Shown: piece by piece, positions 15,997-46,694 of the stretch
How positions within the stretch are numbered: the stretch's first letter is position 1
Layout of the letters: every line of letters begins with the position of its first letter
Sequence record: OR427838.1
DNA length: 64,000 nucleotides
Strand: one strand, 5' to 3'
Source: Escherichia phage fDHCT2
The notes under the pieces: model-generated
What the model was told of the DNA's origin: nothing
The model's input: only the letters and a program-made list of their open reading frames with translations
The model's database searches: none
Translations under genes and position numbers: made by a program

Positions 15997-18900
15997 ATGG
16001 CTACTTTAAAATCGATACAATTTAAAAGAAGTAAAACACCAGGAGCCAAGCCTACTGCAGCTCAGTTAGATGAAGGCGAACTGGCTATTAACTTGCGTGA
16101 CCGCACTATTTTTACCAAGTCAGACCAAGGACAGATTATTGATTTAGGTTTTGCTAAAGGTGGTACTGTCGACGGCGATGTGACTATTAATGGAACTTTA
16201 CGCATTAACGGTCCATTAAACAATTTTGGAAACTTTTCTACAAGCGGGTCGATTACAGCGGGCACTAGTATTTCGGGCCAAACTTTTAGAGCGTTGCAAG
16301 GCTCGTTTTATGCAAGGGCACCAAACGACGCATCGAATGCCCATTTATGGCTTGAAAATGCCGATGGTGTTGAACGGGGTGTTATATATGCTCGGCCTCA
16401 AACTACAACCGCTGGTGAAATACGTCTTAGAGTTAGACAAGGAACCGGAAGCACTATTAATAGTGAATTCTATTTCCGTTCTATAAACGGCGGTGAATTT
16501 CAAGCCAACCGTATTTTAGCATCAGATTCGTTAGTAACTAAACGCATTGCAGCTGATACAGTTATCCACGGTGGCAAAGCCTTTGGTGTATATGATACGG
16601 ATTCATTAGTTAATTATGTATATCCAGGCACCGGCGAAACAAATGGTGTAAACTATCTTCGTAAAGTTCGTGCTAAATCCGGCGGCACTATGTGGCATGA
16701 ACTTTGCACTGCCCAACTAGGCCAAGCCGATGAAATGTCTTGGTGGACAGGTAATACCCCACAGTCAAAACAGTATGGTATTCGTAACGATGGCCGAATG
16801 GCTGGCCGTAATAGCCTTGCATTAGGTACATTCACTACAGATTTCCCGTCTAGCGATTATGGTAACGTCGGTGTAATGGGTGATAAGTATCTTGTTCTCG
16901 GTGACACTGTAACTGGTCTGAAATATATTAAACAATATGTTTATGATTTAGTTGGTGGGGGTTATTCAGTTGCTTCTATTACTCCTGATAGTTTCCGTAG
17001 TACTCGTAAAGGTTTATTTGGACGTTCAGAAGACCAAGGCGCTACATGGATTATGCCAGGCACGAATGCTGCATTTTTATCAGCCCAAACTCAGGCTGAC
17101 GGGAATACAGCTGGTGATGGTCAGACACATATTGGTTATAACTCTGGTGGAAAAATGTCACACTATTTCCGCGGTAGAGGTCAAACCAATATTAACACCC
17201 AAGAAGGTATGGAACTTAACCCAGGTATTCTTAAACTAGTAACCGGTGCAAATAATGTAATGTTTTATGCTGATGGTGGTATTACATCCACTAAGCAGCT
17301 TTCAATTTATAATGGTGTTTATCTTGCAGCTAATAACTCAACCGCAGGTTTGACTTTTTCGGCAACTACCACTATTGATGGCACCAAACAAATTCTTTGG
17401 GAAGGTGGTACTCGAGCAGGCCAGAATAAGAGTTATGTAACTGTTAAAGCATGGGGTAATTCATTTAACGCCACTGGCGATAAATATCGTGAAACTGTAT
17501 TTGAAGTTAGTGACGGACAAGGATACCATTTTTATTCTCAACGTGGTGCGCCTACAGGTGACGAAACTATCGGCCCTGTATTAATGCAAGTTTCAGGTTC
17601 TTTAAATGCAAGAGGAACATTAAACGCCGGTGCCAATCTTTATGTGGGAGGATTGAGTACACATGAAGGTGCTGTGACCATGAATAATGGGCTTAATTTA
17701 ACTGGTGGGGCTTCAATTAACGGACAAGTTAAAATGGGTGGTACCGCTGATGCATTAAGAATTTGGAATGCCGAATATGGTATGATTTTCCGACGTTCGG
17801 AATCCGGTTCTTCTTCTTCATTCCATCTTATTCCTACCCTCCAGAATGCTGGCGAAAACGGTGGAATAAGTGACCTTCGCCCGCTTTCCATTAATTTGGC
17901 TAATGGCACGGTTCTAATGGGTAATAAAAGTGCTGGGTATGGTCCACTTTTCACAGTCGACAACGTAAGTAAATTTGTTCGGACCGACTGTAGACTGCGC
18001 GTTAATATGGATTCCGATGCCATTGTAATAAATGCTTCATCCCAGGCGTCATCTAACTTTATCCAGGGACGTAAAGCAGATGTTACAAAATGGTATCTCG
18101 GTATTGGCGACGGCGGCAACGTTGTTCGTTTACATAACTATACCTACTCCCACGGTATTGCATTAAACTCTGACACTGTTGATATAACCAAGGCACTTAA
18201 AATTGGTTCCGATGTTCGTATTGGTCCTGACGGTAATATTACAGGCAGCACTGCATTAGAAAACTTTAAAAACCTGAACACAACGTTAGACCGTAAAGTT
18301 AACACAGGCGGGTGGTCGGGTGGTGCTACTACAGGTTGGTATAAATTTGCTACTGTAGAAATGCCACAATCGACAGGTACAGCATCCTTTAAAATATCAG
18401 GTGGGTCTGGGTTTAATTTTAAAAGTTATGGTCAGGCTTCAATAGCCGAAATAGTCCTTAGAACCGGCAATAATAACCCTAAAGGCCTTAATGCTACGCT
18501 GTGGAATAGAACTTATGAAGCCATTTCCCAGATTGCTTCGGTTAATACAAGCGAAGATATCTATGATATTTACGTTTACATTGGTGGGTATTCTAATTCT
18601 TTGGTGGTAGAATATACCTGCAGCAGCAATAGTAAAGTAACCGTAGTGGGTATTAATAGCGGTGTCCAGCCTTTGGTAGAAACATTACCTGAAGGTCATG
18701 TTGTAGGTAAATCTGTAAGAATGCTGAACAACCTTGACGGAATGTTTGCTGCCGGCGAATCAGATATTGTTACACGTGGTGAATACGTCGCTAATAACAA
18801 AAAAGGTATGCGTATTAAATCTAGTGGTAATGATATAGATTCTAATGCCGCTTTAATTAGAAACGATGGCGGAAGTTTTTATATTTTATTTACGGATAAA

Positions 18901-44173: not shown

Positions 44174-44407
44174 TTAAACTACTGGGGTCGGTGTGAACAT
44201 TGCTGCGTTCTTGGTCTTCCAGTCAGCAGCATCAGTCACTACAGTAGTATAGGCTGCAACGGCCGAAGGGAAAGTCTGATAATGAGAATCTGCAATACGG
44301 TGCTCGTTTGAATAAATCTCAAACGGGACAGACACTTCAACACCTTTAACTTCTTTACCTTCACCAGCTGGATGCGTAAAGGTTTTGATATTAACGAAAC
44401 CACCCAT
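44174..44407 (-). CDS. soc: Small outer capsid protein Soc
   Basis: 77 aa; VNIKTF...AHYQTFPS..AAY-type blocks as in T4 Soc; late promoter motif upstream; terminator downstream. Confidence 0.75.
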   Translation of the reverse strand: MGGFVNIKTFTHPAGEGKEVKGVEVSVPFEIYSNEHRIADSHYQTFPSAVAAYTTVVTDAADWKTKNAAMFTPTPVV

Positions 44408-44438
44408 AATAAACTCCTTTGTTGTTTAATTACAGGTG

Positions 44439-44446
44439 TATTTATA
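44439..44446 (-). promoter_or_regulatory. Late promoter TATAAATA for soc
   Basis: Exact TATAAATA on minus strand about 35 nt upstream of soc ATG. Confidence 0.55.
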
Positions 44447-44448
44447 AC

Positions 44449-44970
44449 TTAATAACCTCGGTCTTGACGAGCAAAGTTCTCGGCATTTTTCAGATAATAC
44501 AGTTTAAAGATTTCTTCAGCAGTCAGACCAAGACCTTGGAACATATTCAGAACAAAGTGCAGAATATCAATCATTTCGAATTTAATTTCGAGCTGGTCTT
44601 CAGGAGAGAGTTCGTCAATACGACGATTACGGAATTCGGCATGTTGTGCCTTCCACGGCTTCCACACACTGGATGCGGCTTTCTCACCATTACTCATACC
44701 GCCAAGAGAAGTCAGAAGTTCACGGAATTCATCATCAATATAATCTTTCTGGTTGCGAAGCCAATCAACAACTTGACCTGCTGTAGCTAGTTCATCAGGA
44801 TTGGTGTTGAATTCTGATTTTTCAGTAGCCAAACGAACCTGTAATGATTTCTGCATATCAAGCATAACCTGCAGAGGGTCTTTATCTTCGTGAATCAGAG
44901 CATTAAAATAAGCTTCTTCAGCTTTATCAACACCTGCAATAAGTTGTGAGCATTCGTTAAAGTGTGCCAT
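44449..44970 (-). CDS. 56: dCTP pyrophosphatase gp56 (MazG-like)
   Basis: Start refined to ATG 44970; size and position as T4 gene 56. Confidence 0.7.
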   Translation of the reverse strand: MAHFNECSQLIAGVDKAEEAYFNALIHEDKDPLQVMLDMQKSLQVRLATEKSEFNTNPDELATAGQVVDWLRNQKDYIDDEFRELLTSLGGMSNGEKAASSVWKPWKAQHAEFRNRRIDELSPEDQLEIKFEMIDILHFVLNMFQGLGLTAEEIFKLYYLKNAENFARQDRGY

Positions 44971-45060
44971 TATATTTTTCCTTTTCAATTCATTAGTAAG
45001 TTAGATAATTATAAACTGTTAGATTAAAGCGAATAAATATTAATTTAACAGGAGGATAAC

Positions 45061-45261
45061 ATGGGTAGTATTTTTTACCAAATCTGGAAATTGTCCGAAA
45101 AGAAAGACAAGAAAATGATGTTAGGTTTTCTTGCGCTAGACGTGTTCCTTTGGAATCTTCTAGTAGTCCCTGTAGCCGCTAGCCAAGGGATAATTTTACC
45201 AGCGGTTACAATGGAACACGTATTAAGCATAATTGGATTCTTTAGCGGAGTTCCTGCCTAA
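45061..45261 (+). CDS. Small hydrophobic protein on opposite strand
   Basis: 66 aa; strong AGGAGG SD 7 nt upstream; lies in the 56-61 intergenic gap. Confidence 0.4.
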   Translation: MGSIFYQIWKLSEKKDKKMMLGFLALDVFLWNLLVVPVAASQGIILPAVTMEHVLSIIGFFSGVPA

Positions 45262-46286
45262 ATTTTGGAATATTTAGAAAGTCTCATTTTGGCCATTAGA
45301 CCTTGGGCTATATTAGCTTTCATATATGTCAGTACATCATTTATATCAGCTTTATCTTTCATAATCATATCATTTATATCTTTAGAAGGCCATGGAGCCT
45401 TGTCCCAGAATAGAACCCTTTCGCCAGCATCAACTAATCGTTGCATACGCTTAATTGTGTCAGGATGGCGGGGTTCATTGTCCATTACCCAGGCACGAGT
45501 TTCTTTACATGGAACTATAGCCAAATCTAACGACCCACCAGTAATTGCTATTGCATTCGGTACGAATAATGAATCGATAGGACCTTCCATTACCCAGACC
45601 AATTGACGTTCGTCGACTGTATCCATTCCATATATTTTTGTAGCTTGGTCATGAGCTTTTATTGTAATATATTTTTGTGGAGCATCTTTACGCAAGGCTC
45701 GACCCTGAAAACTTTCTATTTGTTTATCCTTATTGAAAATAGGAATAACCAAACGAGGCTCAGGCATTTCTTTAGAATAGGTCCCTGGATTCACAGAGTT
45801 CACCAATGCCGGCCATTCTTTAGTAAACCACAGCCGGTTCCATTTGTTTTCAGGAATGCAACGTAGTGTTACATATTTGATAATAGGATGGTCCTTCGGC
45901 ATTCTATCTAATCGTTCACAGAAATTAAGCTTTTCGATGACAGGCATCTTAGCTTTAATTTTTTCAGATATCTCCACCTTAGGTGCAGCTTGTCTCCCGA
46001 ACGATTGCTCTTTATGTTTCTCAAGAATATATTCTCGATATAAATCCGGCTCATATTCGTATAGATACTTCTTAATTCCTGCTGAATAGTCGCAGTTAAA
46101 ACAGTGCAGCATTACGGAGCCATCATTAGCCGGATAGGCCCAAAAACGAGCTTTGTTCTCATCTTTTTGGGAGTCGCCACATACACGACAACGACAGTTT
46201 AATTTAAAATCACTACCAGTTACTTGTCTGAATTTAGGTTGGTAATTCAAGGCACGTACAGCAAATTCTCTATCGACATATGACAT
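45258..46286 (-). CDS. 61: DNA primase gp61
   Basis: 342 aa as T4 gp61; N-terminal zinc finger CRCRVC...CFNC; TOPRIM-like core. Confidence 0.9.
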   Translation of the reverse strand: MSYVDREFAVRALNYQPKFRQVTGSDFKLNCRCRVCGDSQKDENKARFWAYPANDGSVMLHCFNCDYSAGIKKYLYEYEPDLYREYILEKHKEQSFGRQAAPKVEISEKIKAKMPVIEKLNFCERLDRMPKDHPIIKYVTLRCIPENKWNRLWFTKEWPALVNSVNPGTYSKEMPEPRLVIPIFNKDKQIESFQGRALRKDAPQKYITIKAHDQATKIYGMDTVDERQLVWVMEGPIDSLFVPNAIAITGGSLDLAIVPCKETRAWVMDNEPRHPDTIKRMQRLVDAGERVLFWDKAPWPSKDINDMIMKDKADINDVLTYMKANIAQGLMAKMRLSKYSKI

Positions 46287-46324
46287 TATTTTTCCTTGGG
46301 CTCTAAATTAATAGAGCCATTATA

Positions 46325-46486
46325 TCATTCGTTTTCGGATTTTTCTTTACGCTTTTTAGATGGGATTTGTTCAGGCCCTTTATTGACGACTGCGCCTGAG
46401 GTAGTTCCGGAGGCAATAGCAGTAGGATTACCACCTGCATCGCCTGCGACCATATCTTCGTTCATAACTTCTTTAAAAGATTTCAT
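46325..46486 (-). CDS. Putative 53-aa protein (not in ORF track)
   Basis: AGGAG SD; hydrophilic. Confidence 0.3.
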   Translation of the reverse strand: MKSFKEVMNEDMVAGDAGGNPTAIASGTTSGAVVNKGPEQIPSKKRKEKSENE

Positions 46487-46502
46487 AGGCTCCTGGCCTT
46501 AT

Positions 46503-46694
46503 TTATATTACGAAAATAGCTTTATCACCATTTGCATCAGTGACTTCATAGGTATCTTCGTGGTAAAGTGGAATAATCCAAGTCACACCATCATCAGCAA
46601 TAATATGGATAGCTTCTTGGTCTTTTGATATGATTTCATATTCTTCGAATAACTCGAATACAGAAATCTTAGAGCCCGTACACATTGCACTCAT
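46503..46694 (-). CDS. Hypothetical small protein (start refined to ATG 46694)
   Basis: Track ORF 46503..46712 starts at TTG. Confidence 0.4.
   Translation of the reverse strand: MSAMCTGSKISVFELFEEYEIISKDQEAIHIIADDGVTWIIPLYHEDTYEVTDANGDKAIFVI

Follow-up and report, generated by a model that had tools for sequence, protein, structure and literature searches.

Two-helix holins and pinholins such as S68 of phage 21 are proteins of about 65-70 aa that are very hydrophobic, are made late in infection, and carry polar residues within the membrane. The T4 protein Imm, a small immunity protein of the inner membrane, is expressed early from the minus strand. Lambdoid morons such as bor and lom have a patchy distribution, a deviant base composition, and a terminator of their own. 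Early and middle transcripts of T4-type phages share one direction, counter-clockwise, whereas late transcripts are made in either direction (PMC2988020).

Here we analyzed a small open reading frame (ORF) on the plus strand (45061-45261) that lies between the minus-strand genes 56 and 61 in a 64,000-nt stretch of DNA from Escherichia phage fDHCT2 (hereafter the window). With pinholins of the S68 type its predicted product has in common the size, the hydrophobicity, the expected late timing, and the polar residues in membrane segments. However, no significant sequence or profile match exists between the two, and the small ORF product has only one certain transmembrane helix, no basic C-terminal tail, and no endolysin encoded next to it. 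Compared by description, it resembles Imm as a small, putative inner-membrane protein of a T-even phage encoded among non-structural genes, but it is encoded on the plus strand and is accompanied by late-type signals. As with bor and lom, the gene is small, has its own expression signals, and is oriented independently of its neighbors; unlike these morons, it is not patchily distributed, its GC content is native, and it lacks a terminator of its own. A parallel within the window is soc, which carries a perfect TATAAATA (44439-44446), so that both genes have a gp55-type promoter sequence near the start codon amid early and middle genes. The two differ in that soc is co-oriented with its early neighbors and encodes a capsid decoration protein, whereas the small ORF is convergent with gene 61 and encodes a predicted membrane protein. 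Finally, the members of the protein family PHROG 2024 in RB32, VR7, QL01, VR5, and T4 are like the window ORF in length, architecture, position, and strand beside gene 61.

Locus and gene organization

The source phage belongs to the genus Dhakavirus and is a T4-type phage like JS98; over the 501 bases around the small ORF, its identity to phages LHE83 and QL01 is 98%. Both flanking genes are annotated in relatives and were recognized by their profiles: gene 56 (dCTPase; 44449-44970, minus strand) by phrog_173 (E = 1e-44) and gene 61 (DNA primase; 45258-46286, minus strand) by phrog_47 (E = 4e-97). For gene 56, the mechanical ORF call begins at a TTG (44988, minus strand); relatives use the ATG at 44970 (173 aa).

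Of the ORFs in the 287-nt interval between the two genes, only that on the plus strand (45061-45261) is of notable size and has a start signal. It runs from ATG to TAA, encodes 66 aa (MGSIFYQIWKLSEKKDKKMMLGFLALDVFLWNLLVVPVAASQGIILPAVTMEHVLSIIGFFSGVPA), and belongs to the JS98 type of the PHROG 2024 family. The Shine-Dalgarno sequence AGGAGG (45050-45055, plus strand) is separated from the ATG by a spacer of 5 nt (ATAAC). At the other end, the ORF and gene 61 converge with a stop overlap of 4 nt (45258-45261, both strands), composed of the gene 61 TAG (45258-45260, minus strand) and the ORF TAA (45259-45261, plus strand). An antisense ORF of 51 aa (45075-45230, minus strand) is nested within it. 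An earlier note on this DNA had described a plus-strand ORF inside a minus-strand gene block, a strong ribosome-binding site, and a small hydrophobic protein. All three descriptions were confirmed.

Evidence for a protein-coding gene

The small ORF is a genuine protein gene. An origin by chance is contradicted by the match of its product to phrog_2024 (E = 9.1e-28, residues 1-64 on profile positions 1-64 of 65), by a position that is kept across genera, and by the lowest pN/pS among the reading frames. The protein is 100% identical to the GenBank hypothetical protein WPJ21506.1. Substitution rates were obtained from Nei-Gojobori counts, and the plus frame is under strong purifying selection. 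Between the window and Klebsiella phage kv_tblp5, pS amounts to 0.82 and pN to 0.14 in this frame; dN/dS is 0.06 for Entb_45 versus PEi20 and ranges from 0.10 to 0.26 among the Dhakavirus copies. When all six frames were compared, the +0 frame had the lowest pN/pS in seven of nine pairs, including all pairs with the window. The GC skew is positive across the ORF, which fits plus-strand coding within a minus-strand block.

It could be argued that chance alone keeps the frame open, or that an element of the minus strand does so, namely the 3′ end of gene 61, the promoter or leader of gene 56, or the 51-aa ORF. Three observations agree with such an explanation: the opposite strand is free of stops over 57-65 codons in many relatives, minus-strand transcripts of gene 61 must traverse the interval as there is no terminator, and a MotA-box-like candidate middle promoter lies just upstream of the ORF. 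Yet the frame-specific substitution pattern described above, the persistence of the protein motifs despite saturation of the DNA (pS about 0.8), and the conservation of the plus-strand start codon and Shine-Dalgarno sequence across lineages (AGGAGG, GGAGG, or AGGAG in 13 out of 13) make it extremely improbable. The same direction is indicated by the GC skew and by Rfam, which gave no match across 44300-46400. The 51-aa antisense ORF was also considered as a gene in its own right and was ruled out. Its pN/pS pattern is worse and a Shine-Dalgarno sequence is missing, so we regard the antisense open frame as a by-product.

Distribution and synteny among T4-type phages

PHROG 2024 is a narrow family whose members are 52-74 aa long and fall into a JS98 type and a T4 type; these two are paralogous and share just 18-27% identity. 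Searches with tblastn retrieved the JS98 type from 138 phage records (among them Dhakavirus, Gaprivervirus, Kanagawavirus, Moonvirus, Mosugukvirus, Gelderlandvirus, and Klebsiella T4-like phages) and the T4-type paralog from 716 records, among them the Tequatrovirus phages T2, T4, and T6. All matches with a named host came from phages of Enterobacterales. Among the other ORFs of the 64-kb window, a family profile search detected no second member.

Placement convergent with gene 61, on the same strand as in the window, is found in at least nine genera of Tevenvirinae. The JS98 type is opposite in strand and adjacent to gene 61 in all loci examined and abuts its stop codon in most. The tail-to-tail overlap of 4 nt is also present in T4, QL01, VR5, Merlin, Entb_45, and kv_tblp5. 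The ORF is a core gene, near-universal in enterobacterial T4-type phages and fixed tail-to-tail with the primase gene 61.

In T4 itself, the family member is a 66-aa ORF at 17738-17938 (plus strand, NC_000866) that lies between dam and 61, in a gap of 309 bp. It is preceded by GATAAATA and AGGAGG, ends in the same 4-nt stop overlap with gene 61, and is absent from the annotation in both AF158101 and NC_000866. The small ORF is likewise unannotated in the records of JS98, JS10, and IME08. Annotated members comprise (i) RB32 ORF030w; (ii) VR7 ORF033w, described as "similar to RB32 ORF030w"; (iii) QL01 gp028; and (iv) VR5_029. The members from T4, Merlin, P0072, and P0075 match phrog_2024 as well.

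A variant start was noted for T6 (1975-2010 of extracted locus L015), which differs from T4 by 1 nt in the first codons. Here, the annotation begins with the second Met, at a distance of 19 nt from AGGAGG. A mini-ORF of four codons (TTG TAC AAA AAT TAA) ends as TAATG over the annotated ATG, an arrangement that may permit translational coupling.

In the gapriverviruses VR26 and VR7, both types occur in tandem as a two-gene unit (extracted-locus coordinates L023:995-1401 and L010:2295-2700, respectively; the corresponding region of EAWsc9 is L005:2462-2780). The T4 type comes first, the JS98 type follows 8 nt further on, and the unit has a single late-promoter-like element. The second copy shows an apparent frameshift near the C-terminus in VR7 and is mostly deleted in EAWsc9.

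The earlier note had also suggested that the ORF could be a moron-like insertion, that is, a foreign gene brought into the 56-61 early block together with its own signals. Its strand opposite to that of the neighbors, its own promoter-like element, and its strong Shine-Dalgarno sequence would suit such an origin, and the interval does tolerate insertions. The variable items are mobE, which separates gene 56 from the ORF in IME08 (L003:1810-2466) and VR5 (L004:1842-2498), dam in T4, and small extra ORFs in Merlin and the Kanagawaviruses. These inserted elements, however, flank the ORF, and the junction with gene 61 is retained in most relatives examined. Comparison of the 56-61 interval across T4-like phages revealed the same plus-strand ORF again and again. 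Its distribution over at least nine genera and T2, T4, and T6 is not patchy, its GC content (0.398) does not differ from the window mean (0.396; local range 0.29-0.465), it has no terminator of its own on either strand, and its promoter-like element is of the phage's own late type. The fixed position across genera, the native GC content, and the fact that other elements are the variable ones leave the idea of an insertion unsupported, and we regard it as having next to no probability. The ORF is an ordinary, vertically inherited gene in an ordinary orientation.

With regard to the homing endonuclease gene mobE, we also observed a copy between 61 and 61.1 in PEi20 (L008:3626-4234) and none in the window; in VR7, segF is located beside gene 56.

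Late promoter and transcription of the interval

The late promoter of T4 consists of TATAAATA at positions -13 to -6; out of 50 sites, 32 are perfect and nine have an A at -13, which is the commonest variant (PMC2988020). Across T4-like phages, position -13 is weakly conserved (PMC1524935). Close upstream of the small ORF, the late promoter-like element AATAAATA (45032-45039, plus strand) corresponds to this commonest variant and would occupy positions -13 to -6 relative to a predicted transcription start near 45045, as is typical of T4-type late genes. In the AT-rich 64-kb window, late-promoter octamers are no more frequent than in shuffled sequences, so a single motif match is no evidence and conservation alone counts. 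The lone occurrence of AATAAATA was for this reason discarded as proof of a late promoter.

The core ATAAATA was present 13-21 nt ahead of the start codon in 11 of the 13 lineages (background 0.009 per lineage), the lineages being related by descent, so that a binomial weighing of this count overstates their independence. TTAAATA takes the place of the core in the remaining two (Merlin and CGG4-1), and a perfect TATAAATA precedes the ORF in IME08, kv_tblp5, Entb45, and Q7622. The sequence flanking the motif differs among lineages, and in IME08 the homology to the window starts just ahead of the motif. Judged by these signals, the ORF most likely belongs to the late class. An antisense orientation had been called unusual in the earlier note; it is in fact shared by the Tevenvirinae genera, and with late transcripts of T4 running in both directions, a late gene that faces an early block is to be expected.

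A perfect TATAAATA was also seen at 46500-46507 (minus strand), 13 nt upstream of the start of a 61.1-like ORF (46325-46486, minus strand), so this small gene of the early region may have a late promoter, too.

Other signals were sought around the ORF. Neither a terminator scan nor RNA folds revealed a terminator after its stop codon on either strand, and folds of the leader and of the region downstream of the stop showed no unusual structure. Promoter-like sites in a scan for the sigma-70 type were not above shuffles. With respect to a dedicated antisense RNA of the kind found in type I toxin-antitoxin systems, Rfam again yielded no match, and antisense coverage is expected only from read-through of gene 61.

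On the other strand, a candidate middle promoter of gene 56 (45008-45034, minus strand; low confidence, consensus match only) was noted. Its parts are ATTCGCTTTA, which resembles a MotA box (reverse complement of 45025-45034), and, after a spacer of 11 bp, TATAAT (reverse complement of 45008-45013); it may drive gene 56. The arrangement agrees with the rule for middle promoters, in which the MotA consensus (a/t)(a/t)(a/t)TGCTTtA and the -10 element are 12 +/- 1 bp apart (PMC2988021). The MotA-box-like sequence overlaps the late-promoter element by 3 bp in back-to-back arrangement.

Taken at face value, these signals would have transcription begin near 45045 from the gp55-type late promoter AATAAATA and yield a leader of 16 nt with a strong Shine-Dalgarno sequence. 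As no terminator follows, the late RNA is expected to extend beyond the stop codon, antisense into gene 61. Conversely, early or middle RNA of gene 61 would read antisense through the ORF toward gene 56.

Possibly, then, the late plus-strand transcript itself serves as an antisense shut-off of gene 61 late in infection, with the peptide being secondary. [quoted passage not shown] Against a mainly RNA-level function stand the strong purifying selection on the amino acids together with the conserved motifs, as well as the non-T4 relatives of the gene, which lie in late operons without a primase gene opposite. We therefore rate it as very unlikely; an antisense effect on primase may add to a role of the protein rather than replace it.

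Predicted protein

Hydropathy predicts residues 19-41 as the single clear transmembrane segment of the window protein (MMLGFLALDVFLWNLLVVPVAAS; 45115-45183, plus strand; Kyte-Doolittle values of 1.8-2.05 in 19-residue windows). The AlphaFold2 model, built from a 16-sequence alignment, contains helices at residues 2-11, 14-41, and 51-62, with a mean pLDDT of 72 and block means of about 81-85 over residues 21-50.

W31 and P37 occur in all of the 18 diverse members compared; N32 and P47 are conserved in at least 90%. The motif W-N-x4-P-x-A-x3-G-x2-(L/I)-P is common to both types. The N-terminus is basic, with a net charge of +2 to +7 among members. A conserved G-x-x-L-P turn precedes the C-terminal segment, a hydrophobic helix in which an acidic residue is conserved. 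This segment has a net charge of -2 to 0 and exceeds the transmembrane threshold in some members and not in others. The window protein has the architecture and the motif of PHROG 2024.

In a topology consistent with these features, the basic N-terminus would stay in the cytoplasm and residues 19-41 would span the inner membrane. The G-x-x-L-P turn and the acidic C-terminal helix would then be placed in or at the periplasmic face, or be folded back as a hairpin. At mid-helix, the invariance of Trp and Pro and the near-invariance of the polar Asn point to helix-helix association, through which the protein would act either with further copies of itself or with another membrane protein as its partner.

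Homology searches and distant relatives

Pfam, NCBIfam, and PADLOC yielded no significant match, either to the window protein or to the 18 diverse members. A profile search of PDB sequences produced only chance matches to transmembrane helices (E of at least 0.29), and a Foldseek comparison of the AlphaFold2 model with BFVD found same-family members only. From 1.84 billion representatives, a profile search recovered 14 clusters (33-69 aa), all of them the same small proteins and none an annotated distant relative; an alignment-based homology search recovered 117 proteins, every one hypothetical. In the literature, we found no paper on the ORF, its names, the dam-61 interval, or relevant small or unannotated proteins of T4.

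Three distant members were detected in contigs of uncultured non-T4 phages, where they are co-oriented with structural genes. The module (L019:9260-10749, L020:9272-10159, and L022:7260-8749) contains, in this order, a tail-tip gene and the genes for a 94-aa protein with an N-terminal membrane segment and a coiled coil, endonuclease VII, and the small membrane protein. The family member is thus the third gene past the tail-tip gene and lies where the structural gene block ends, or close to it, and this module was not seen in any cultured phage of the collection. Placement in a structural operon fits late expression and not a lysis cassette. On one of the contigs, a serine recombinase was also noted.

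Possible functions

From the sequence evidence as a whole, we are fairly confident that the ORF is a core gene, most likely late, whose product would be an inner-membrane protein of roughly 65 residues. As to its activity, our low-confidence guess is that it modulates, through contacts of its transmembrane helix, a late envelope event, be it the timing or inhibition of lysis or the protection of the infected cell's membrane. A lysis-related role in the broad sense is possible if somewhat unlikely, a role in exclusion or on a host membrane target is quite unlikely, and the rest of the probability falls to something not yet nameable.

A lysis protein of the holin or antiholin type, in particular, would be small and hydrophobic, as is the product of the ORF, and the late-type promoter and the polar residues within the transmembrane helix would suit it. 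A single GenBank record and a single UniRef entry use the name "holin", and weak model matches were obtained with phrog_3427 (E = 0.002; the distant member P0075) and PF11351 (E = 0.08; two of 18 members). However, no holin model of Pfam or NCBIfam was matched above its family threshold, the charged region is N-terminal and the charged C-terminal tail typical of holins is absent, no endolysin or spanin gene is adjacent, and the non-T4 relatives are found outside lysis cassettes. T4 already has a complete lysis set in t, e, rI, rIII, and pseT.3/pseT.2. A holin-type function therefore appears unlikely. The two database labels are unsupported guesses of annotators.

Alternatively, the protein might be devoted to superinfection exclusion or host targeting by binding an inner-membrane protein common to Enterobacterales. 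All matches with a named host are from phages of this order, and the Asn and Trp in the middle of the helix would suit helix-helix binding. The region after the tail-tip gene is a frequent site of exclusion genes such as cor and llp, and the non-T4 relatives are placed just past that gene. Late expression, on the other hand, would be odd, since Imm and Sp of T4 are early, and the protein has no similarity to PADLOC models or known exclusion proteins. Altogether, such a function, proposed from context, seems rather improbable.

More speculatively, and with a probability that we consider low, the small protein could be an unrecognized player in how lysis and lysis inhibition are timed or signaled, in late exclusion, or in membrane-linked assembly. 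It would then act via transmembrane helix contacts with the holin or a host inner-membrane protein, and its unterminated transcript might double as an antisense switch that shuts off primase late in infection.

Annotation and significance

The ORF as such is already known: it is listed as a hypothetical protein in many GenBank records and forms part of the uncharacterized family PHROG 2024. Several records carry misleading product names, which include (i) "DNA packaging ATPase" in SAKp28, VAC36, and MY02; (ii) "dCTP pyrophosphatase" in CGG4-1 and dhaeg; (iii) "putative head morphogenesis protein" in T6; and (iv) "holin family protein" in EAWsc9. In SHP1 and phage 04086, the feature under the match is "thymidylate synthase".

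Clarifying the status of the plus-strand ORF removes a false lead, as it is no foreign insertion. Beyond this window, the analysis has a modest yet real implication that is worth noting: between dam and 61, the reference annotation of T4 misses a conserved and selected gene for a small, putative membrane protein. With the annotation missing or wrong, gene-level screens built on such annotations skip the small ORF, which is one of the few near-universal genes of T-even phages without an assigned function.
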